Part shown: positions 5,591 through 47,488 of the stretch, one piece after another | Layout of the letters: the number at the start of each line of letters is the position of its first letter | Numbering within the stretch: the stretch's first letter is position 1 | Origin: Deltaproteobacteria bacterium | GTDB taxonomy: Bacteria; Desulfobacterota; Desulfobaccia; Desulfobaccales; 0-14-0-80-60-11 | Assembly (NCBI GenBank): GCA_016875015.1 | Contig: VGSJ01000006.1 | Location: 1 to 63,660, forward strand | Direction: 5' to 3' | DNA length: 63,660 nt | Position numbers and translations under genes: made by a program | The notes under the pieces: model-generated | The model's input: only the letters and a program-made list of their open reading frames with translations | Told to the model about the DNA's origin: nothing | Database searches by the model: none

Positions 5591-5614
5591 AGGCGAGGCT
5601 TGATCACTGCCCTC

Positions 5615-5765
5615 TATCCACCCTCATAAAAACCGTTAGAGTGGGTTGATATGGATATCTTAATCTCTATCTAAGACCCTGGGGGCATTTAAAGTTTTAG
5701 TCGCAAGTGTCAGGTCTAATCTGATCTCGGTTTAATGATTGTCAACTCAAATCTTGGTCATTACA
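5615..5765. repeat. ~150-bp dispersed repeat copy A (putative transposon terminal repeat, end ...GGTCATTACA at 5765)
   Basis: Same orientation as 46884-47033 and ~85-87% identical by hand alignment (one 1-nt indel); the last 20 nt CTCAAATCTTGGTCATTACA are identical. Confidence 0.9.
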
Positions 5766-5803: not shown

Positions 5804-8800
5804 TCAACTCCCCTCCACCTTCTCGGCCGGGGGCGCCGCCGGGGGGGCAGGTTTCTTCCAGCGCTCGCTGAGTCTCTCGGTGATCACATAAAACACCGGC
5901 ACAAACGGGATGGCCAGGATGGTTGAGGCCAGCATGCCGCCGAAGACCACGGTGCCGATGGCCTGCTGGCTGGCCGCGCCGGCGCCGCCGGCGACCATGA
6001 GGGGCACCACCCCGAGGATGAAGGCGAAGGAGGTCATGACAATGGGGCGGAAGCGGCGGCGGGTGGCCTCCACCGCGGCCTCGGTGATGGACATGCCGTC
6101 TTCCCGCAGTTCCCGGGCGAACTCCACCACCAGGATGGCGTTTTTGCTGGCCAGGGCGATCATCAACACCAGGCCCACCTGGGTATAGATGTTGTTGTCG
6201 AAGTTCCGGACCATCAAGCCCAAGAGGACCCCCACCATGGCGATGGGCACCACCAGAATGACCGCGGCCGGGTTAAACCAGTTTTCGTATTGGGCCGCCA
6301 GCACCAGGAACACCAGGGTGATGGACAGGGCGTAGATGAAATAGGCCTGGCTGCCCACCTGCTGCTCCTGGAAGGAGGTGGCGGTCCAGTCGTAGGACAT
6401 GCCCCGGGGCAGGGTGTTTTGGGCCACCTGTCCCATCAGTTTGAGGGCTTCACCGGAACTGAAGCCCGGGGCCGCCCCCCCGAAGATGGAGGCCGCGGGA
6501 TAGAGGTTGTAGCGGGTGACTAATTCCGAACCCAGGGTCCGGTTGACCTTCAGCAGGGTGCCCAGGGGGGCCATTTCCCCTTTGAGATTGCGGACGTAAA
6601 GGCTCTTGATGTCCTCGGGTTGCAGGCGGTACGCCGCGTCGGCCTGGACGTAAACCTGGAACACCTGGTTGAACTTGTTGAACAGATTGACATACGTCGA
6701 CCCCAGGTAGGCCTGGAGGGTGTCGAAGACGTTGTTCAGGGGAATATTCAGGGACTCGGCCTTGGTCCGGTCGATGTCGAGATAGAGTTGGGGACTGCGG
6801 GCGCTGAAGGTGGTGGCCATGAAACCCAACCCCGACTGCCCGGAGGCGGCCCGCATGACTTCCATGGCCGCCTTCTGCAGTTCGGCCAACCCCAGGCTGC
6901 CCCGGTCCTCCACCATCATCTGGAAGCCCCCGGACTGGCCCAGGCCGGCAATGGGCGGCGGCACCAGCACCGCGACCTGAGCGTCCTGGATGGTAAAAAA
7001 CTGCCGCTGCAAGGCGCCGACGATATGGTCCTGGCTCAACTTGGACCCCCGCTTGCCCCAATCCTGGTAAATCACGAAAGTGGTCATAATGTTGGAGACG
7101 TTGGTGCCGTCCAGGATGGAAAATCCCCCCACGGTCACCCAGGCCTCGACGCCCTGCGCCTGCTTGAGGATGGCATCAATGGCCTCCGAGGTCTGTTTGA
7201 CCCGGGGTTGGGCCGTGCCTTCGGGCAGCCTGGCCAACACCATGCAGTAGCCCTGGTCTTCCGTGGGGAGAAACCCGGTGGGCTGCAGGGTAAACCGCCA
7301 GCCGGCCAGGGCAATGACGGCAATAAACACCAGCACCATGAGGGTAGTGCGCGCGACCATCCACTGAATGAGGACGACGTAGGCGTGCTCCACCACCGCG
7401 TAGCCCCGGTTGAACCCCCGGTAAAACAGGTTGGGTTCCTTCTTAACGTGGGGGCGCAGCCAGAGGGCGCACTGGGCGGGCTTCAAGGTCAGGGCGTTCA
7501 GGGCGCTGATGATGGCGGTGGCGGCAATGACCAGGGCGAATTGCCGGAAGAGTTGCCCGGTGATGCCCGGCATAAACGCGGCGGGCAGAAATACCGCGGT
7601 GAGCACCAGGGTGATGCCGATCACCGGCCCGGTCAACTCTTTCATGGCCTTGATGGCCGCCTCGCGCGGATGGAAGCCTTTCTCGATGTAAACCGAGGCG
7701 TTCTCGACAATGACGATGGCGTCGTCCACCACGATGCCGATAGCCAGGATGAGGGCGAACAGGGTCATTAAATTGACGGTGAAGCCCAGCAGGGCCATGG
7801 CCGCAAACGCGCCGATGATGGTCACCGGCACGGTGGTGGCCGGGACCAGCATGGCCCGCCAATTTTGCAGGAACACCATGATGACGATGAGCACCAGGAT
7901 GCCGGCTTCAAACAGGGTTTCATAGACCGCGTGAATGGCCTGGCCGATGAACTCAGTGGTGTCGTAATGGATGGCGTATTTCAGGCCTTCCGGGAAGGTC
8001 TGGCTCATCTCGACCATGGCCGCCTTGACCTTGGCGCCGACGTCCATGGCGTTGGCCCCGGGCAGGGCGTAAACCAGGATTTGGCCGGATTGCTTGCCGC
8101 TCAGGCCGCCAAAGTTGCTGTAATACTGCTGGTCCAAATCAACCCGGGCGATATCTTTCACCCGCACCAATTGCGCGGTTTCGCCTTGGTCGCGGCGCAC
8201 GCTTTTGACGATGATATCTGAGAACTGCTTGACGTCGGACAGCCTTCCCAAGGCGTTGACCGTGAACTGGAAGGCCTGATCCGGCGGCACCGGCGGGGCC
8301 CCCAGCCGACCCGCCACCACCTGGACGTTTTGCTGTTGAATGGCGTGCACCACATCCAGGGTGGTGAGATTGTAGTACTTGAGCTTGTTGGGGTCCAGCC
8401 AGACCCGCATGCTGTAGGGCCCGGCCCCGAAGACCTGGATCTGCCCCACCCCGGCCAGACGGCCCAGGGGGTATTGCAGGTTGATGATGGCGTAGTTGGA
8501 GAGATAGGTCGCATCATAGCGGTCATCGTCGGAGTAGATGCTGATCACTTGCAAGATGTTGGTGGAGACCTTGCGCACGGTGACGCCTTGCGCCTGCACC
8601 GTCTCGGGAAGCTGGGCGGTGGCGCCGTTCACCATGTTCTGCACCAGGGTCAATGATGTATTGAGATTGGTGCCCACCGCAAAGGTCACGGTGAGGGTGT
8701 AATTCCCGGAACTAGAACTGGTGGACGACATGTAAATGGAGCCTTCCACGCCGTTGACCGCCTGTTCGATGGGAACCCCCACCGTGTTGGCGATGACCTC

Positions 8801-8965
8801 GGCGCTGGCTCCGGGGTACATCGTGGTCACCTGGATGGTGGGCGGCACGATTTCGGGATACTGCGCCACCGGCAACGTGAACAGACACACCAACCCCAGA
8901 ATGACGGTGACGATGGCGATGACGTTGGCGAAAATCGGCCGATCAATAAAAAACTCGGAGATCAT
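5804..8965 (-). CDS. RND efflux permease, HAE1 (AcrB/MexF-like)
   Basis: 1053 aa. FFIDRPIFA start, GIVVDDAIVIVEN, KNAILVVEFA and RFRPIVMTS motifs. Confidence 0.95.
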   Translation of the reverse strand: MISEFFIDRPIFANVIAIVTVILGLVCLFTLPVAQYPEIVPPTIQVTTMYPGASAEVIANTVGVPIEQAVNGVEGSIYMSSTSSSSGNYTLTVTFAVGTNLNTSLTLVQNMVNGATAQLPETVQAQGVTVRKVSTNILQVISIYSDDDRYDATYLSNYAIINLQYPLGRLAGVGQIQVFGAGPYSMRVWLDPNKLKYYNLTTLDVVHAIQQQNVQVVAGRLGAPPVPPDQAFQFTVNALGRLSDVKQFSDIIVKSVRRDQGETAQLVRVKDIARVDLDQQYYSNFGGLSGKQSGQILVYALPGANAMDVGAKVKAAMVEMSQTFPEGLKYAIHYDTTEFIGQAIHAVYETLFEAGILVLIVIMVFLQNWRAMLVPATTVPVTIIGAFAAMALLGFTVNLMTLFALILAIGIVVDDAIVIVENASVYIEKGFHPREAAIKAMKELTGPVIGITLVLTAVFLPAAFMPGITGQLFRQFALVIAATAIISALNALTLKPAQCALWLRPHVKKEPNLFYRGFNRGYAVVEHAYVVLIQWMVARTTLMVLVFIAVIALAGWRFTLQPTGFLPTEDQGYCMVLARLPEGTAQPRVKQTSEAIDAILKQAQGVEAWVTVGGFSILDGTNVSNIMTTFVIYQDWGKRGSKLSQDHIVGALQRQFFTIQDAQVAVLVPPPIAGLGQSGGFQMMVEDRGSLGLAELQKAAMEVMRAASGQSGLGFMATTFSARSPQLYLDIDRTKAESLNIPLNNVFDTLQAYLGSTYVNLFNKFNQVFQVYVQADAAYRLQPEDIKSLYVRNLKGEMAPLGTLLKVNRTLGSELVTRYNLYPAASIFGGAAPGFSSGEALKLMGQVAQNTLPRGMSYDWTATSFQEQQVGSQAYFIYALSITLVFLVLAAQYENWFNPAAVILVVPIAMVGVLLGLMVRNFDNNIYTQVGLVLMIALASKNAILVVEFARELREDGMSITEAAVEATRRRFRPIVMTSFAFILGVVPLMVAGGAGAASQQAIGTVVFGGMLASTILAIPFVPVFYVITERLSERWKKPAPPAAPPAEKVEGS

Positions 8966-40701: not shown

Positions 40702-40918
40702 AGGGGATTAGCCGGACCTGGCCGCCGCTCCCAACCCAAAGAAGTTAACCGGGTTAGCGCGCCGCTCACCGGCCGAGCCATGTGCCGATCAATGGGTGCT
40801 GTCCTAATTTGATTTTGGATTTTTGCAAGCGATTGCAAAGTTTGGATAAATTGATCTGAGAGTGGATAGGAGCAAAATGACATTTTCGTTCAAAGACTGT
40901 CATCCTCACCAAACGCCA

Positions 40919-40947
40919 TTGACAATGGACTTTGGACAGAATATAGT
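40919..40947 (+). promoter_or_regulatory. Putative sigma70 promoter P1 of the NYN islet
   Basis: TTGACA-17 nt-TATAGT; the -35 box lies in the palindrome CCATTG-A-CAATGG. Confidence 0.6.
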
Positions 40948-41013
40948 CTTTTTGGAAAAAAGAGGTATCTATATTTTTTTTTATGTTTTCTATAGCTTTT
41001 CCCGATTATTATC

Positions 41014-41042
41014 TTGACACGGTCAATCTGACCCACTACCAT
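41014..41042 (+). promoter_or_regulatory. Putative sigma70 promoter P2 of the NYN islet
   Basis: TTGACA-17 nt-TACCAT with overlapping inverted repeats TTGAC-N3-GTCAA and GGTCA-N3-TGACC. Confidence 0.65.
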
Positions 41043-41049
41043 ATAGTCA

Positions 41050-41162
41050 TTGAGACCCATCGACGGAACCCATCATCTTTTTTGGATTTGGATGTGGATT
41101 AGCTTCTGTCGATAATTGAGCCCCCAGGGAGTGATCCATTTGGACACTCCCTGTTTTGTTTT
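41050..41162 (+). ncRNA. Candidate structured leader/small RNA upstream of the NYN nuclease gene
   Basis: Two units, each TTGAGNCCC followed by a stem: ATCGACGGAA/TTCTGTCGAT (41059-41113) and CAGGGAGTG/CACTCCCTG (41125-41153), then TTTTGTTTT. Confidence 0.5.
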
Positions 41163-41179
41163 GGAAAGGTAGAGACGGA

Positions 41180-41821
41180 ATGAACCGTATAAGGATATTT
41201 GTAGATTACTGGAATTTTCAGTTGACTATGAATAAACGCGAAGCCTCAGAAAGGGGCAAAATCGACTATCGTTTTGAGGTTGATTGGCTTGGCTTAGGCC
41301 CTTGGCTTGCCCGAAAAGCCTGTGAGCGAATACAAATTACCGATTATTCGTTTGATGGAATCAATATTTACACTTCCTATAATCCAACCACTCAAGAGGG
41401 AAAAAAATTTAATCAATGGGCCAAAAATATACTCAGTAAAGGAACTGGGGTTAGCGTAGAATGCATTGAGAGGAAGCCCAAAAATTATCCAGAATGCCCA
41501 ATTTGTCATCGTGAAATTAGAAATTGCCCTCATGGTGATTGCGGTGCAGAGATGAACCGAACTATAGAAAAAGGGGTAGATACCTTAATTGCAACCGATA
41601 TGATCCGGTTGGCTTGGGAGGATGCTTACGATTTTGCTGTATTGTCCACAATGGACCGCGATTTAATCCCAGCCGTTAAGTTTTTGAAACAAAAAGGAAG
41701 AAAGATAATTCACGCAGGCTTTCCGCCCCTAGGAACTGATTTAGCCGCAGCTTGTTGGGCTTCTTTCGATGTCTATCGCTCACGGAAAGAAATAAATAGA
41801 CCTCCAAAAAAGAAGACATAG
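41180..41821 (+). CDS. NYN-domain (PIN-fold, LabA/DUF88-like) protein with a Zn-ribbon-like insertion
   Basis: IFVDYWNF, EKGVDTLIATDM, LSTMDRDLIPAV and LAAAC; insertion CPIC..CPHGDC; AT-rich codons. Confidence 0.9.
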   Translation: MNRIRIFVDYWNFQLTMNKREASERGKIDYRFEVDWLGLGPWLARKACERIQITDYSFDGINIYTSYNPTTQEGKKFNQWAKNILSKGTGVSVECIERKPKNYPECPICHREIRNCPHGDCGAEMNRTIEKGVDTLIATDMIRLAWEDAYDFAVLSTMDRDLIPAVKFLKQKGRKIIHAGFPPLGTDLAAACWASFDVYRSRKEINRPPKKKT

Positions 41822-42003
41822 GCTTAATTCAACTTCCCCACACTTTATGATCTGGTCAATGAGAAAACCTGACTTCCGGCCAGTTATCTGATATCATCCG
41901 GCTGACGAGAGAAATCCCCTGGAAGTTTAAACGGCACCAGGCGCATGATCAACTGCCGTTTCGGGGCCGGAACCGCCCCCATCCTGCATAAGTTCGCCTT
42001 ATT

Positions 42004-43317
42004 ATGATGAAAATACTATTAATCCAAGCTTCCGGCTACCGGGAAAACGGCCGCCTGGACCGGCGAAAGAACCGCTGGCTGCTGGGGATGACCCTGCCGT
42101 ATGTGGCGGCTTTGACCCCCGGCGATATTCGGGTGGAGATCAAGGACGATATGCTGGAGGAGATCACCTTCCGGGAAGACTGCGACCTGGTGGGCCTCTC
42201 CTTCATGTCCCACCAGGCCCCCCGGGCCTTTCACCTGGCCGCGGGTTTCCGCAACCGGGGCATTCCCGTGGTGATGGGCGGTTTTCACGCCACTCTGGCC
42301 CCGGAAGAATGCCAGGCGCATGCCGATGCCCTGGTGCTGGGGGAGGCCGAGGAGGCCTGGCCCAGGCTCCTCCGGGATTTCCAGGCCGGGCGGCTCCAGC
42401 CCCGCTATCAGGCGGAGAAACTTTCGGACCTGAAAAACCTGCCGGTGCCCCGCTATGACCTGCTGGATCTCAAGCGTTACAAGGTCTGGAACATCCCTTC
42501 CCAGACTACCCGGGGGTGTCCCTATAATTGCAGCTTTTGTGAAGTCACTCAGGTCTATGGGGGCAAGTTCCGGCACCGCCCCGTGGACGAAGTGATCCAC
42601 GAAATTAAGGAGATTCGGCGGTTAACCGACAGCGGTTTTATCTACTTCGTGGACGACAACTTCGTGGCCAACCGCGGCCACGCCATGGAGATTATGGAGC
42701 GCCTCATCCCCCTCAAGCTGAATTACGCCTGCCTGGCCACGGCCAACGTCGGGGACGACCCGCAGTTGCTGGACCTCCTGGCCCGCAGCGGCTGCCGCCA
42801 CGTGAACATCGGCATGGAGTCCATCAGCCCGGAAAGTCTCCGGTCCATCAACAAAAAACAGAATAAGACTACGGATTATGAACGTCAGTTTAAAGGCCTG
42901 CGGGACCGGGGCGTCGGCTTTTCGGTGAACGTCATGTTCGGGCTTGACGGCGACCGGCCGGAGATCTTCGGGGCCACGGTGGATTTCCTCAATCGCGTCA
43001 AGGCGCCGGCCGCGTTCATGTTCATCCTGGCCCCCCGCCCCGGCACCAAGGTGCAGAAGCAACTGCTCCAGGCTGGGCGGATTTTTGACCACGACTGGAG
43101 CCATTACAGCGGCTTTCAGGTGGTTTACCACCCCAAACACATGTCGGTGGGGCAACTGGAGGAGGGCTACTGGCGCGCCAACCGGAAGTTCTATTCGCCC
43201 CTGTCCATGCTGAAGCGCTTCCACCGGGCCCCCTATGACCTCAACATGCTGATTTTCAACCTCTATTTCGCCTGGGCGGTGCGCCGCCGCTTTCAACCCC
43301 TGAATTATTTTTTTTGA
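42004..43317 (+). CDS. B12-binding domain radical SAM protein
   Basis: LPYVAALTP, DLVGLS, VVMGGFHAT, GEAE, TTRGCPYNCSFC and FVDDNF. Confidence 0.9.
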   Translation: MMKILLIQASGYRENGRLDRRKNRWLLGMTLPYVAALTPGDIRVEIKDDMLEEITFREDCDLVGLSFMSHQAPRAFHLAAGFRNRGIPVVMGGFHATLAPEECQAHADALVLGEAEEAWPRLLRDFQAGRLQPRYQAEKLSDLKNLPVPRYDLLDLKRYKVWNIPSQTTRGCPYNCSFCEVTQVYGGKFRHRPVDEVIHEIKEIRRLTDSGFIYFVDDNFVANRGHAMEIMERLIPLKLNYACLATANVGDDPQLLDLLARSGCRHVNIGMESISPESLRSINKKQNKTTDYERQFKGLRDRGVGFSVNVMFGLDGDRPEIFGATVDFLNRVKAPAAFMFILAPRPGTKVQKQLLQAGRIFDHDWSHYSGFQVVYHPKHMSVGQLEEGYWRANRKFYSPLSMLKRFHRAPYDLNMLIFNLYFAWAVRRRFQPLNYFF

Positions 43318-43412
43318 GCCTGGCGGAAGAAGTCATGCCTGGGCCTTTTGCCCACCCGTAAATCATGAAATGTTCGGTGGGGCGGGCCTCCGTGCCCGCC
43401 GCGGCCATAAGG

Positions 43413-43562
43413 CGTAATTCCTAAAATTTGAGATGACTATCATCAAACCGAGAAAAGATGAGACCTGACCCTGGGGACAAAAACTTTAAAGGTCGCCAGG
43501 GTATGAGATAGAGCTAAGATATCCATATCAACCCGCGGTAATGGATTTTATAAGGGTGGATA
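43413..43562. repeat. ~150-bp repeat copy B (left TIR, begins CGTAATTCC)
   Basis: Reverse complement of copies A and C; shared blocks TCATCAAACCGAGA, GACAAAAACTTTAAA, GATATCCATATCAA and GGATTTTATAAGGGTGGATA. Confidence 0.9.
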
Positions 43563-43599
43563 GATAGCAGTTATATGTTCCGGGGGCATAGAGCAGGTC

Positions 43600-44898
43600 C
43601 TATGCCCCGCCAAATTCTAAAAATATTACCCGGCTTTTATCATCATAGCTCAACAGTTCTGCATATCGCCCCCAGTCGACCACAATCTCCAACTGGTGTT
43701 GGGCCTCTTCCGGGTGGAATTCGAGTTCCAGGGCAGCCTGCACAACCTCCCATTTTTGCTGATTTTTTTCAGAGGCGCGCAAGATGGTCGTTAACCATTT
43801 GAACAATGGCAGTCGGCGGAGGCGGGCGGCAAAAATTTCTTTGCGACCGATAATGCTGGCCTCCGCAAAAGTCTCCCCCAAGGGGGTAAGGTGTATATCC
43901 CCCTTTGCAACTGTGGCAAAACCCAATAGTTCCGCAGCCTCGATCAAACTCAAAAGCTGATCGGAACCCACCTTAATATCATCGGCTAAAGCATAAATGT
44001 CATGTCGATGGTCAGTGGCTTTTTCCAAATGCTCCATTAGACCGGGGAGATCGCTGATGGGAATTTTAGGCAGCCTGCGGGTCGGCCCCGGCTCACCGGG
44101 CGCAGTTCCAAGTTCCTCATGCTCCGGCTGGGTTTGTCCGGCCAGCAGAGCATATACCTTATCCACCACCTCTTCAAAGTCCAGGTCCTTACGATGCCGG
44201 GGATGTGAGAGGTCCACGTTGAAGTCCATAATGAGGCGGCCTGGGTCTTTTTCCATGACCACGATCCTGTCGGCCATGAACACGGCTTCCTCAATATTAT
44301 GGGTGACCATCAAAATGGCCTTGGTAGGCAGCTTGCCGCTGGTCCAGAGTTCCAGCAGCTCTCCCCGCAGGGTCTCCGCACTGAGGACGTCCAGATTAGA
44401 AAAAGGCTCATCCAGGCAGAGCAACTCCGGTTCCACGGCAATCGCCCGGGCAAAACCGACTTTCTGGCGCATGCCCCCGGAAAGCTCCCGGGGGTAGGCA
44501 TTCTCAAAACCATCCAAGCCGACCCGGTCCAAGATTTCCAAGGTCCGGCTCGCCCGCAACCGGGGAGGCAAGCCGCGGGCTTCCAAAGCCAGTTCCACGT
44601 TTTCCTGCACGGTCAGCCAGGGGAACAAGGCGAAGGTCTGGAAAACGATGGTGGCATGGGGGTTGACCCCAATAAGAGGTTGGTTGCGATATAATACCTC
44701 ACCGCTGGTGGGAGGCTGCAAGCCGGTGATAATCCGTAAAAGCGTGCTTTTGCCGCACCCTGATGGCCCCAATAAAGCGCTAAACTCACCCTCTTTCAGG
44801 GTGAGGCTGAAGTTTTTGATGGCGGTGAATGGCCGCGCCCCCGCGGCATAGACCTGATTGACGTCTTTTAGCTCAAGGAGAAAATCATTGTTGGTCAT
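43600..44898 (-). CDS. NitT/TauT-type ABC ATP-binding protein with C-terminal AAA-associated domain
   Basis: GPSGCGKS, FQTFALFPW, LSGGMRQKV and LDEPFS; C-terminal extension AAELLGF..DWGRYAEL. Confidence 0.9.
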   Translation of the reverse strand: MTNNDFLLELKDVNQVYAAGARPFTAIKNFSLTLKEGEFSALLGPSGCGKSTLLRIITGLQPPTSGEVLYRNQPLIGVNPHATIVFQTFALFPWLTVQENVELALEARGLPPRLRASRTLEILDRVGLDGFENAYPRELSGGMRQKVGFARAIAVEPELLCLDEPFSNLDVLSAETLRGELLELWTSGKLPTKAILMVTHNIEEAVFMADRIVVMEKDPGRLIMDFNVDLSHPRHRKDLDFEEVVDKVYALLAGQTQPEHEELGTAPGEPGPTRRLPKIPISDLPGLMEHLEKATDHRHDIYALADDIKVGSDQLLSLIEAAELLGFATVAKGDIHLTPLGETFAEASIIGRKEIFAARLRRLPLFKWLTTILRASEKNQQKWEVVQAALELEFHPEEAQHQLEIVVDWGRYAELLSYDDKSRVIFLEFGGA

Positions 44899-44901
44899 GG
44901 T

Positions 44902-46647
44902 TCAATCCATGTGGAATTTTTCTTCCGCCAGGCGGTAAAGTCGCCGCCATACCAGGCGGTTGATGGTGGTCACGGCCAGGATCATCCCCAGGGTGGAAGC
45001 CAGGAGAAGGGGGTAATTTCCGTTGGCGGTGGCCTGGGCGATGAGGGAACCCACGCCTACGGTAAACAAAGTCTGCCCCCCGAATTGGACGTATTCCGCC
45101 ACGATGCTGGCATTCCAAGCTCCCCCGCTGGCGGTGATGGCTCCCGTGATGACATACGGGAATAGGGCGGGTAAAATCAGGGCGCGCCAACGCCGCCAAC
45201 GGCTCAATTGCAGCAGGGAGGCGGTATATTTCAAATCCTGGGGGATAGCCGAAGCCCCGGCAATGACATTGAAAAGCAGATACCATTGGGTCCCCATGAG
45301 CATCAGCAGTACGGCGGCCAAGTTGAGTCCGGAAGGAAGCTTCAGCACTACCAGCAAGACTACCGGGAAAAGGGCGGTGGCGGGCACCGAGGCCGCGACC
45401 TGGACCACGGGTTGCAACCAGGTGGCCAGGCGGCGGTTGGTGCCGATGGCTACTCCCAAAGGGATAGTCCAGGCCAGCGCGATTAGCAGGGCTAAAAGGA
45501 CGCGCAGCAACGTGGCCAGCACTCCTACAAGAATTCGGCCCCAATCAGTCAATGAGACATTCAAGAGCAACTGCATTGCCTGGTATGCTTCATATAAAAT
45601 TATTGAAAGACCTAAAAATCCCAAACCATAAAAAAGATAGCGATAGCTCCGTTTCCCGGCAGGTGGAAGCTGACTTTCTTTGCTGCCCTGATACTTGATC
45701 AACCGGGAATCCAAGAGTCTGCTCAGAGGGTTAAAGACTCTCCGGCGAATGCGGGAAATCAGGTGAGAACTACGTATGGCCGAATAAAACCAGGACGTCG
45801 GGGGAATCTCTTCCTCTACCATTCCCAACTTGAAACGTTGACCCCAGGCCAACAGGGGCCGCCAGACCAACTGGTCTAAAACCACAATGGTGCCCACCAA
45901 AGTCGCCAGTCCCAAAGCTATGGCCTGGAGATCGCCTTCATTGGCAGCCGATTGCAAATAAGAGCCTAAGCCTTGGAGACGAAAATCTTTGTTTCCGGCG
46001 GTGAAAATCTCTGCCGCCATCAGGAAAAACCAGCCCCCGGCCCAACTCATCATGCTGTTCCAGATGAGAGAGATTGCAGCAAATGGCAATTCTAACCTCT
46101 TGAAGCGCAGCCAAAAGTTGAGCCGGAAAATCGAGGAGGCTTCCTTTAAATCATTAGGGATGGTGGTCAGGGATTGATACCAGGCAAAGGTAAAGTTCCA
46201 TGCCTGGCTGGTAAATATCAAGACGATGGCAGAGAGTTCCACCGCCAATTTCTGGGGAAGGACGGCACTCAGTCCTAACAGGACTACCGGTAAGAACGAA
46301 AGGATGGGCACGCTTTGCAGGACATCGAGGAGGGGAAGCAAGATTTTTTCGGCTGTTTGATACCTGGCCGCCATGTAGCCGTAGACCAGGGAAAAAATAA
46401 CGGAGAGGACATAGGCTGCGGCCATGCGCCCCAAGGACAAACATAGGTAATAGGGCAAGACCTTTGGGGAAAGATTGACCTCTGGGCCGCTGACCACTTC
46501 CGGGGCACCCATGGCCAGGCGGACCCCCATGTATATAAGGCCCCCGACACCCAGCAAAACCACTCCATCTCCCCAGGTGAAAGGGCGGAGGGTATGGAGA
46601 AGCCTGAATTCTCGGCTGGTTCGTTTCAATTTGTCTCCAAAAACCAA
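44902..46647 (-). CDS. NitT/TauT-type ABC permease with duplicated TM domain
   Basis: LDVLQSVPILSF, WNSMMSWAGGWFFLMAAE, QWYLLFNVIAG and GGAWNASIVAEY; start uncertain. Confidence 0.9.
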   Translation of the reverse strand: MVFGDKLKRTSREFRLLHTLRPFTWGDGVVLLGVGGLIYMGVRLAMGAPEVVSGPEVNLSPKVLPYYLCLSLGRMAAAYVLSVIFSLVYGYMAARYQTAEKILLPLLDVLQSVPILSFLPVVLLGLSAVLPQKLAVELSAIVLIFTSQAWNFTFAWYQSLTTIPNDLKEASSIFRLNFWLRFKRLELPFAAISLIWNSMMSWAGGWFFLMAAEIFTAGNKDFRLQGLGSYLQSAANEGDLQAIALGLATLVGTIVVLDQLVWRPLLAWGQRFKLGMVEEEIPPTSWFYSAIRSSHLISRIRRRVFNPLSRLLDSRLIKYQGSKESQLPPAGKRSYRYLFYGLGFLGLSIILYEAYQAMQLLLNVSLTDWGRILVGVLATLLRVLLALLIALAWTIPLGVAIGTNRRLATWLQPVVQVAASVPATALFPVVLLVVLKLPSGLNLAAVLLMLMGTQWYLLFNVIAGASAIPQDLKYTASLLQLSRWRRWRALILPALFPYVITGAITASGGAWNASIVAEYVQFGGQTLFTVGVGSLIAQATANGNYPLLLASTLGMILAVTTINRLVWRRLYRLAEEKFHMD

Positions 46648-46883
46648 GGTTTGAACCTATTGTTAACTTAGTAAGTCGATGTGAGAAAGATGACAAGCCA
46701 GATTTTAACAAATGGTCTGAAGCATAGCAATGAAGCCAAAGAAATCCCGCCTGGCTGCGAAGGAACTCGGAACCATGACCATGATGATTGCTCCTGAAAG
46801 CCCGCGGGTGAACCATTAAGGGAAGAAACATATAGAATTCAAGTTGCAGGCCATCCATTACTGATGGCGGATAAACTTGCCTT

Positions 46884-47033
46884 TATCCACCCTTATAAAA
46901 TCCATCAAAGTGGTTTGATATGGATATCATAGCTGTATCTAAGACCCTGGCGACATTTAAAGTTTTTGTCGTAAGTGTCGAGTCTAATTTGATCTCGGTT
47001 TGATGATTGTCCGCTCAAATCTTGGTCATTACA
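46884..47033. repeat. ~150-bp repeat copy C (right TIR, ends ...GGTCATTACA)
   Basis: Direct-orientation match to 5615-5765 and inverted match to 43413-43562. Confidence 0.9.
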
Positions 47034-47058
47034 GTCTAAGCAGCAGCGGCGCGGTCAC
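47034..47058 (-). pseudogene. 5' stub of a vapC-like PIN toxin, cut at the TIR
   Basis: GTG 3 nt after the restored antitoxin stop, reading MTAPLLL(R), like a PIN first strand 'LLLD', then running into TGTAATG of the TIR. Confidence 0.5.
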
Positions 47059-47061
47059 GGC

Positions 47062-47309
47062 TCACGCCTCGCGGCCGGACAGGCGGTCCAGTTCACGCCG
47101 CAAGGTCTTGAAGTCGGGCAGATCCGCCCTCCCCTGCCACATGCCCCTGGCATTTGCAGCCGCGCCCGGCGCTCTCCAGGCTGAAATCCTTCAATCAGGC
47201 GGTCGATGGCCTGGCGGATTAATTCGCTTTGCTTCTTGCCGGTCTGCCGGGCAATGGCCCTAAGGGCGGCGCGTTCGGCTTCGGTCAGATAAATCTGGGT
47301 CCTGACCAT
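47062..47309 (-). pseudogene. Frameshifted CopG/RHH (VapB-like) antitoxin
   Basis: MVRTQIYLTE..SELIRQAID; adding one base at ~47153-47155 restores ARGMWQGRADLPDFKTLRRELDR ending at stop 47062. Confidence 0.75.
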
Positions 47310-47488
47310 GGGGACCATCCCTTTACCATGATGTATATGTGTGGTGTATAATTATGGCTAATTGCCCCGGCCTTGTAAGGCCCCTTACCTGCCCTGCCCA
47401 TCAGTTCTGCTTCCTTCATGACGTTGCCTCGCTTTCTTAAACCGCCGTCAGGTCAGTTCCCTCAGCGGCAACCGCTGCCAACCAACCC

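Follow-up and report, generated by a model that had tools for sequence, protein, structure and literature searches.

Inverted left-end modules around an ABC transporter operon, and a family of transposase-less cargo transposons, in an uncultured Desulfobacterota bacterium

The locus

Here, we describe a 3.6-kb segment at positions 43413-47033 of a stretch of 63,660 nucleotides (the window, that is, positions 1 to 63,660 of contig VGSJ01000006.1 in assembly GCA_016875015.1) from a Deltaproteobacteria bacterium placed in the Desulfobacterota, whose genome is a metagenome assembly of 148 contigs with a completeness of 99.96%. In this segment, an operon of two ABC transporter genes lies between two inverted copies of a non-coding repeat unit, which is termed the left-end module (LE). 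A first-pass annotation made from the sequence alone had taken the segment as one transposase-less cargo element with unusually long inverted repeats, possibly belonging to an undescribed family of non-autonomous transposons. As detailed below, a family of non-autonomous, transposase-less cargo transposons exists, in which LE is one of two types of ends, whereas the segment itself is probably a product of rearrangement and not one mobile unit.

The two arms (43414-43562 and 46884-47032) form an ungapped inverted repeat of 149 nt, 82% complementary according to a repeat search of the window, in agreement with the earlier hand count of about 81%, and the termini (CGTAAT... at 43413 and ...CATTACA at 47033) are as first described. 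This repeat is far above chance, since it belongs to a family with 13 nhmmer matches at 12 loci of the genome (E<=1e-3). Among them is LE3 (Table 1), the third copy that had been noticed beside unrelated DNA at 5765. The open reading frames (ORFs) and Pfam domains bear out that the arms enclose two ABC genes only, both on the minus strand. The cassette is also AT-richer than the host DNA, as had been claimed, to a modest extent: its GC content is 54.5%, compared with 59.2% for the genome, 60.3% for the adjoining radical-SAM gene and 39-40% for the arms.

Table 1. Coordinates of the features in and around the segment, numbered from the first letter of the window.
Feature	Position	Strand	Remarks
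LE1, left-end module	43413..43580	+	Outer tip at 43413, inner end at about 43575-43580; orthologues in G011 and G004
LE2, second left-end module, inverted	46866..47033	-	Outer tip at 47033; orthologue in G013
LE3, third left-end module	5598..5765	-	39 nt downstream of an AcrB-like efflux gene (5804-8965)
ABC ATPase with C-terminal AAA-associated domain	43600..44898	-	Pfam ABC_tran and AAA_assoc_C
Fused two-domain ABC permease	44902..46647	-	Pfam BPD_transp_1
Leader/promoter region of the ABC operon	46648..46865	-	Between permease start and LE2 inner end; without M-box riboswitch
GC-rich hairpin over the ATPase stop codon	43584..43612	-	Abuts LE1 inner end; sequence read directly
GC-rich hairpin outside LE1	43375..43411		Multi-copy, repetitive extragenic palindrome (REP)-like; from metagenome contig depth
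Ribbon-helix-helix (RHH) antitoxin-like gene	47055..47318	-	LE2 outer flank; Pfam RHH_1/RHH_3; frame-shifted
B12-binding radical-SAM gene	42004..43317	+	Conserved LE1 outer flank; directly convergent with uvrB in 9 relatives

The LE unit is about 165 nt long and about 40% GC, with sharp borders. In an alignment of 26-29 copies from the genome and its relatives, conservation is uniform along the unit, with 0.05-0.16 variable positions per 10-column bin, and the variability jumps to 0.5-0.65 past both ends (L002, L005 and L046 were omitted from one LE alignment, and L030 and L032 from some of the identity statistics). The TGT tip of the first-pass annotation is not conserved; the first base may be T, G or C, and conservation begins at GTAATG. 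Matches to LE were found in 20 of the 41 genomes searched, including 15 of 17 in the genus. The terminal 19-mer, with no more than one mismatch, occurs in 30 of 83 genomes and in 10 of 17 genera of the order, compared with none for a reversed control pattern, and the family is thus broader than had been guessed. The exact-pattern matches come from metagenome-assembled genomes labelled uncultured Syntrophobacterales or Deltaproteobacteria, apart from one labelled Proteobacteria and one Planctomycetota.

Could LE serve the host, for instance as a regulatory site or by encoding a small RNA or a small protein, instead of being a part of something mobile? Seven of the genome's copies follow a co-oriented gene at a distance of 2-95 nt, and both arms of the window have an open reverse-strand frame of 27 codons with a Shine-Dalgarno-like sequence. 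However, an RNA gene is ruled out: neither the LE units nor the window at the gathering threshold had a match in Rfam, RNAalifold gave 0 pairs for 26 copies on the forward strand, the only one folded, and the single-sequence folds are weak (z = -1.3 and -1.75). A small protein gene is ruled out as well, because 15 of 26 copies keep the frame intact while 11 have it broken, and because the third codon position is not the most variable one (0.149, 0.082 and 0.103 at positions 1, 2 and 3). The uniform conservation with its abrupt drop at both unit ends also speaks against a host role, and the pairing with a second end, the target duplications and the empty sites described below all point to transposition. 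We therefore consider such a role very improbable.

A second type of end and the facing pairs

A second repeat, the right-end module (RE), was traced from two leads, namely a sequence on contig C64 that weakly matches the LE tip in the inverted sense and a conserved block beside uvrB on contig C30. It has 12 copies in the genome and matches in 17 of the 41 genomes, 14 of them among the 17 of the genus. The outer tips of both LE and RE read (T)GTAATGRYCAAGAYTTGA in the inverted sense; the consensus tips, compared in that sense, have 16 of 20 and 23 of 30 bases in common and then diverge. Near-symmetric ends of 150 bp, which had been proposed as a design of the family, are consequently not found in its canonical members, whose ends differ and measure about 165 nt (LE) and about 125-150 nt (RE).

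Candidate elements were same-contig LE and RE matches, picked by eye from the two match tables and then fetched. The two ends face each other at all 20 fetched loci, 18 of which have both tips and span 527-3870 bp, and in all nine of a second batch, seven at 1.3-4.3 kb and two (17.5 and 24 kb) doubtful. Facing pairs are also present in other genera. In relatives, the ends are spaced 0.5-5 kb apart around varied passenger genes. Two or three pairs in other orientations were seen by eye, and many contigs end too early to judge. The possibility raised earlier, that the copies are unpaired and randomly oriented, therefore does not apply to LE and RE. A canonical member consists of LE, 0.2-5 kb of passenger DNA and RE, with about 7 bp of the target duplicated.

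The interiors are mutually unrelated, and most members carry one to four intact genes. The cargo includes AIPR, KatG together with an aquaporin, B12 radical-SAM enzymes, an O-methyltransferase, many secreted proteins and, by eye, a sulfatase-like protein; the Pfam scan covered 10 cargo proteins, a minority of the cargo ORFs. The smallest elements, of 527, 595 and 700 bp, are non-coding and intergenic, and one of them, C64:10013-10712, is a complete LE...RE element of 700 bp. Leaving the doubtful interval aside, no transposase is present in the ORFs of 18 elements of the first batch, nine of the second and three from other genera. The sole transposase seen is an IS1595-type gene in the doubtful interval of 17.5 kb, which has its own unrelated ends. 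The search for a copy enclosing a transposase, as the first-pass annotation had advised, thus found none in about 30 elements save for this gene.

Some further observations concern individual elements. The 700-bp element on C64 contains a c-di-GMP-I-GGC riboswitch aptamer (C64:10357-10439, 70.8 bits compared with a gathering score of 59), with no downstream gene inside the element. Inverted tips (GGTTCCGTAAAAAG...) mark a separate miniature element, about 110 nt long, which is found inside the C64 LE (C64:10076-10184) and beside the RE of C118 (about 6900-7010). An AT-rich element of about 3 kb (C73:7308-10330, 45% GC) has a subfamily-B LE, a partial RE and two genes, one of which resembles by eye a RelA/SpoT-type nucleotidyltransferase and may be a defence gene. 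On contig C4 of G014, two direct repeats of 413 nt (L083 and L090), are 94% identical and about 73 kb apart. In each of them, a fragment resembling the 3' end of a tRNA precedes a subfamily-B LE by 50 nt. A tRNA or tmRNA was considered as a target of insertion on account of this fragment, in which neither ARAGORN nor Rfam calls a gene. The two repeats may be the boundaries of a large island.

Marks of transposition and age

Duplication of the flanks was scored systematically at 7 bp only, omitting L160 and L163, whose partial REs are without tips. The 7 bases outside the two tips agree at 4.26 of 7 positions on average in 19 elements, compared with 2.99 in 342 mismatched pairings (permutation p=5e-5, which is overstated, since three of the 19, L148, L158 and L162, are orthologues of one insertion). 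Matches of at least 5/7 occur in 10 of the 19 elements and in 12% of the mismatched pairings. For example, L155 has a perfect duplication of 7/7 (CTTAAGG), and an LE/RE pair from another genus has 6/7. The target site looks A/T-rich and TTAAG-like, and the duplication has decayed. In addition, the search for empty alleles proposed at the outset was successful, namely at the site between the radical-SAM gene and uvrB in nine relatives and at the bestrophin-side site in G008. Based on the facing LE/RE pairs with varied cargo, the 7-bp duplication signal and the empty sites, the transposon family is real, and the earlier suggestion of non-autonomous, gene-carrying transposons is supported.

Between paralogous LE copies, the identity averages 79.9% (sd 3.8, maximum 90.9%), and orthologues across species are 76-96% identical. 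Since the copies are about 20% apart and many of them occupy orthologous sites across species, most LE/RE insertions are old and predate the sampled species, and no recent activity was seen.

Origin of the two arms

The segment in the window does not have the structure of a single member of this family. Both of its ends are LE, and the flanks of LE1 and LE2 (CATAAGG and GTCTAAG) agree at 2 of 7 positions, so that there is no target-site duplication around the pair, as the first-pass annotation had already noted. No LE or RE remnant was found inside the segment at E<=10, except for one 13-nt match at chance level.

The two arms have different orthologues. LE1 and about 95 nt before it are common to G004 and G011, where they follow the same radical-SAM gene (93% identical as a protein). 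In 9 of 11 same-genus relatives, this gene is directly convergent with uvrB and there is no LE. The site between the two genes holds LE, 5.2 kb and RE in G004, and in G011 the radical-SAM gene is followed by LE and 3.8 kb with a single gene of 993 aa. In the genome studied here, uvrB is located on contig C30 with an RE alongside, and the flanks of LE1 and this RE (CATAAGG and TATAAGC) match at 5/7. As for LE2, the unit and its 21-nt outer flank are common to G013, in which an IS5-like insertion interrupts the LE2 orthologue. In G008, a bestrophin-like gene is followed by the DNA that here ends contig C16, directly outside an RE, and the flanks of LE2 and this RE (GTCTAAG and GGTTTAG) match at 4/7. 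The flank agreement of 2/7 between LE1 and LE2, together with their separate orthologues, therefore indicates that the arms come from two insertions, the right ends of which are now elsewhere. The right end of the segment had also been thought to cut a vapC-like gene, which could not be confirmed: the stop codon of the RHH gene is only 21 nt from LE2, no PIN-domain sequence is left, and the other side of the reconstructed insertion carries the end of an unrelated gene.

A separate observation concerns a sequence of about 130 nt (C16:46410-46540) in which C16 and at least 10 other contigs end, with an identity of 99-100%. It is an unassembled high-copy element that breaks the interior about 55 nt beyond the C16 RE.

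The position of the ABC operon differs among the relatives. Homologues of the permease were found in 8 of 17 genus genomes; beyond the genus, they occur in three further genera of this family and in a single distant member of the phylum. The permease of the window is 64-66% identical to the copies of nine relatives, compared with 66-97% among those, and 35% identical to that of the distant G040, these ten copies making up the comparison with one further locus left out. The ATPase is about 72% identical to the relatives' copies (tblastx). The operon adjoins an M-box (Mg2+) riboswitch in 6 of 11 relatives (L054, L056, L058, L059, L060 and L062), which suggests a role of this transporter family tied to magnesium or another metal. 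No riboswitch was found at the window's copy with Rfam at the gathering threshold; the genome's own M-box is on contig C86 (L065 5403-5570), preceding an MgtE_N/CBS gene and an Nramp gene. LE is present at none of the 11 ABC loci fetched from relatives; the case envisaged in the first-pass annotation, in which relatives carry the cassette without the repeats, is thus the one observed. Since the operon is elsewhere in the relatives, the M-box is absent here and the window's copy is slightly more divergent, the ABC operon is relocated or replaced in this genome.

The following history would account for these observations. In an old insertion, E1, that came between the radical-SAM gene and uvrB, LE1 would be the left end, and the right end would now be on C30; LE2 would be the left end of another old insertion, E2, next to the bestrophin-like gene, with its right end on C16. 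Subsequently, breaks at the inner boundaries of the end modules, or close to them, would have rearranged the DNA so that LE1 and LE2 came to face each other and to enclose the ABC operon that relatives keep elsewhere, behind an M-box riboswitch. We infer the order and mechanism of the rearrangements from the present arrangement. That the arms are LE modules of two old cargo-transposon insertions, later brought together around the ABC operon, is the best explanation overall, and we hold it to be fairly probable.

Alternatively, LE/ABC/LE may be a true homotypic composite element, one that took up the ABC operon and was mobilized as a unit by an enzyme in trans. The cassette does fit exactly, 20 nt from one inner end and 219 nt from the other, the operon is placed differently from the copies of the 11 relatives and has lost the M-box leader, and a homotypic RE/RE pair around a single 834-aa gene is also present (C21:34321-37266). 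However, the flanks agree at only 2/7 in the segment and in the RE/RE pair alike, in contrast to the mean of 4.26 for LE/RE elements, and both arms are orthologous at the same flanks in species without the ABC cassette there. Moreover, the presumed RE partners are elsewhere in the genome, and no second copy of the LE/ABC/LE unit was found among the 41 genomes. Such a composite is thus quite unlikely. The RE/RE pair on C21 was also considered as the reciprocal product of the LE/LE pair, which was rejected, as the flanks match at 2-3/7 by eye.

Points against the proposed history

Several points weigh against an origin of the arms from two insertions, and the first one concerns the left junction. 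Logan contigs, built with 31-base words from four lake-water metagenome runs that carry no flag as possible sources, cover the entire stretch. On the right side, overlapping contigs connect the ABC genes with LE2 and the latter with the RHH flank. On the left side, contigs bridging LE into the ABC genes are found only in X4 and X7, and both of these independent runs join the cassette to the outer part of a C3-type LE, not to LE1: the bridging contigs have the C3-type bases at 43470, 43473, 43474, 43479 and 43491, and their upstream part is unlike the window. LE1 and the LE copy on contig C3 are 88-92% identical and agree exactly over 69 nt (43492-43560). In X5 and X6, this shared stretch continues into a group II intron abutting the C3 copy, and short contigs connect the radical-SAM flank to the outer part of LE1 with no differences.

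Consequently, the left join in the window's contig, C6, could be a mis-join, in which case the ABC genes would really be joined to the C3 LE and LE1 would continue into the intron. The contigs of X4 and X7 that run into the ABC genes and those of X5 and X6 that run into the intron are what this explanation would predict. However, the ambiguity is to be expected, as 31-base words cannot resolve an exact repeat of 69 nt, whereas the assembler of the genome probably used longer words and read pairs, and the short contigs of X5 and X6 link the radical-SAM flank to LE1. We regard a mis-join as unlikely. It would change which LE is the left arm, not the nature of the arms, and the cassette would still lie between inverted LE units. 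Whether the left arm is LE1 or the C3 copy is therefore uncertain, and both options place the inner end of an LE directly next to the ABC terminator.

As for the C3 copy itself, a short, apparently ORF-less group II intron is inserted in it on the opposite strand at LE position 148 (L002 905-1500, that is, C3:22084-22679). It has Rfam matches to D1-D4 and domain V, and its junction recurs in metagenome contigs.

Other points concern the reconstruction and the family. The flank matches of LE1 with the C30 RE (5/7) and of LE2 with the C16 RE (4/7) are each weak alone, given that 12% of random pairings attain 5/7, and the argument leans on synteny. Past the C30 RE there are 7 kb of core genes (miaB-like and mnmA), which are free of LE and RE in 11 relatives. 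A single inversion between E1 and E2 is therefore unsupported, and at least two events, or ones beyond reconstruction, are needed for the present arrangement. The cassette fits snugly between the two inner ends, like the cargo of canonical members. About 24 of 54 long LE matches in relatives have a facing RE within 6 kb on the same contig, by an unscripted count made by eye. Neither an autonomous element nor a cognate transposase was found, so transposition is deduced from structure alone, the p-value of the duplication test is overstated as mentioned, and the genome itself is a metagenome assembly in many contigs.

Synteny breaks at the inner ends

Four of five orthologous pairs show nucleotide homology (88-94%) along the outer flank and across LE, which is lost no more than about 12 nt from the inner end, even in a pair whose LEs are 96% identical. 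The same break at the LE inner end is seen in the radical-SAM trio and in the acrB trio; in the latter, LE3 is orthologous in G003 and G008 and the synteny ends at its inner end. The flank ORF clusters common to different loci are nearly all on the outer side. The exceptions are the conserved pair L028/L045, an inner-side cluster of two loci (L019/L022) and three clusters that pair an inner ORF with an outer one. These patterns point to cargo turnover beside fixed ends as the most unusual aspect of the family, and assembly breaks at the repeats may contribute to them. Homologous recombination from repeat to repeat is unsupported as the cause of the breaks, as the inner flanks of relatives map here to parts without LE or RE.

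There is a small chance that the transposons have swappable cargo and fixed ends, and that LE/ABC/LE is one outcome of such traffic. The patterns suggest two routes for such a swap, with the ends of 125-165 nt serving as homology arms or with a recombination site at the inner boundary, and the enzyme would be none of the recognized transposases encoded in these genomes. A further step would be to take LE mainly as a recombination or landing site, next to which the ABC cassette arrived by exchange, either through recombination between elements with LE and RE as homology arms or through a site-specific enzyme at the inner boundary. The stop of homology at the inner end in four of five pairs and both trios, as well as the outer-side position of most shared ORF clusters, would be expected of such a site. 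However, no recombinase is associated with the LE and RE units, the relatives' inner flanks map to genome parts free of both, some of the breaks may be assembly artefacts at repeats, and different members may have inserted independently into a preferred site. A landing site is accordingly an improbable explanation, and the origin of the arms from two old insertions is preferred here.

Mobilizing enzyme and relation to known systems

No examined member encodes a transposase, and therefore the movement must, we infer, have relied on an enzyme supplied in trans. A cognate autonomous element was found neither in about 30 elements, nor in this genome, nor near the rve genes of the genus. The genome has no gene with an rve domain. 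Such genes are present in 11 of 18 genus genomes, including G001 and G015, which have no LE or RE, and were not found in the LE-rich G004, G008, G011 and G013. The rve transposases are thus unsupported as mobilizers, with none here and with two genus rve frames of about 765 aa that have no LE or RE nearby. The transposases of the IS1595 family are rejected, because the 7 matches in this genome have unrelated inverted repeats of 35 nt and the tip motif is absent. DDE_Tnp_1 genes and 13 tyrosine recombinase matches are also present in the genome.

A comparison with the literature, with ISfinder and TnCentral outside its scope, found the concept of the mobile insertion cassette (MIC) and nothing on the LE/RE family. 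MICs, as presented in PMC4337579, have passenger genes between inverted repeats of insertion sequence (IS) or Tn type and no transposase, are moved in trans and often leave solo ends. The examples given there are the TnXax1-type MICs of Xanthomonas, with MIC231 of Bacillus cereus appearing as a cited reference only, and Tn3-type MICs are described with a target duplication of 5 bp (PMC4337579). On these features, the MIC is the closest described kind to the LE/RE family, which likewise has passenger genes, inverted ends, no internal transposase, target duplications, solo ends and presumed mobilization in trans. There are also differences from the MICs as described in that text. An autonomous partner is known for both published cases, whereas none was found for the LE/RE family, whose ends are much longer, differ past the first 20-30 bases and go with a duplication of about 7 bp. 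In addition, the host is an uncultured Syntrophobacterales-like lineage, and the family is abundant across a whole bacterial family.

Other known systems share some of these features. Like the Tn7-like, Tn5053/Tn402, Mu, Tn552 and IS21 elements, LE and RE are long, dissimilar, start near TGT and have internal repeats of short motifs; the cargo is variable, and many copies closely follow a gene, in a fixed orientation. However, no rve gene is present in the genome or in or beside any examined LE/RE element. Tn7, Mu and Tn5053 make a target duplication of 5 bp, in contrast to about 7 bp here, and the LE/RE elements occupy many different insertion sites per genome. The smallest members, non-coding, with inverted tips and dispersed in intergenic DNA, resemble miniature inverted-repeat transposable elements, from which the family differs in that most members carry genes and have long non-identical ends. 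Finally, the two like units in inverted orientation that bracket a cargo operon in the window recall a composite transposon made of two copies of one IS. Unlike those, the units encode nothing, the pair is without a target duplication and the two arms have separate orthologous histories.

Other features of the window

The hairpin over the ATPase stop codon (Table 1) is likely the operon terminator of the ABC genes, judging from its sequence and position; a terminator scan did not call it, since it is without a T-run. In the leader of the operon, a promoter-like site is present at 46730-46702 on the minus strand, as a consensus match only. At the hairpin outside LE1, the summed contig depth in the four lake metagenome runs is 62-120, compared with 5-14 alongside, and several unrelated metagenome contigs match the window at 43352-43411 only. 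For the RHH gene, the usual C-terminal part is found in another frame, at 47062-47190. Upstream of the radical-SAM gene, an AT-rich stretch (40800-41900, about 40% GC) carries an NYN-domain gene (41156-41821). This stretch is probably a separate insertion, because G011 and G004 lack it in their syntenic regions.

Implications

The segment bears on genome annotation, where long inverted repeats around an operon should be called a transposon only after a second type of end and a target duplication have been checked. For the family as a whole, the question is posed of which enzyme recognizes unlike ends of 125-165 nt and makes a 7-bp duplication. If the interpretation is correct, there would be dozens of small transposase-less gene shuttles per genome in one uncultured family of Desulfobacterota, moving genes for defence (AIPR and, by eye, RelA/SpoT-like), stress (KatG and aquaporin), radical-SAM enzymes and secreted proteins. 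The LE and RE units mark most of the synteny breaks examined, and they would thus offer a handle on the movement of accessory genes in a lineage represented only by metagenomes.

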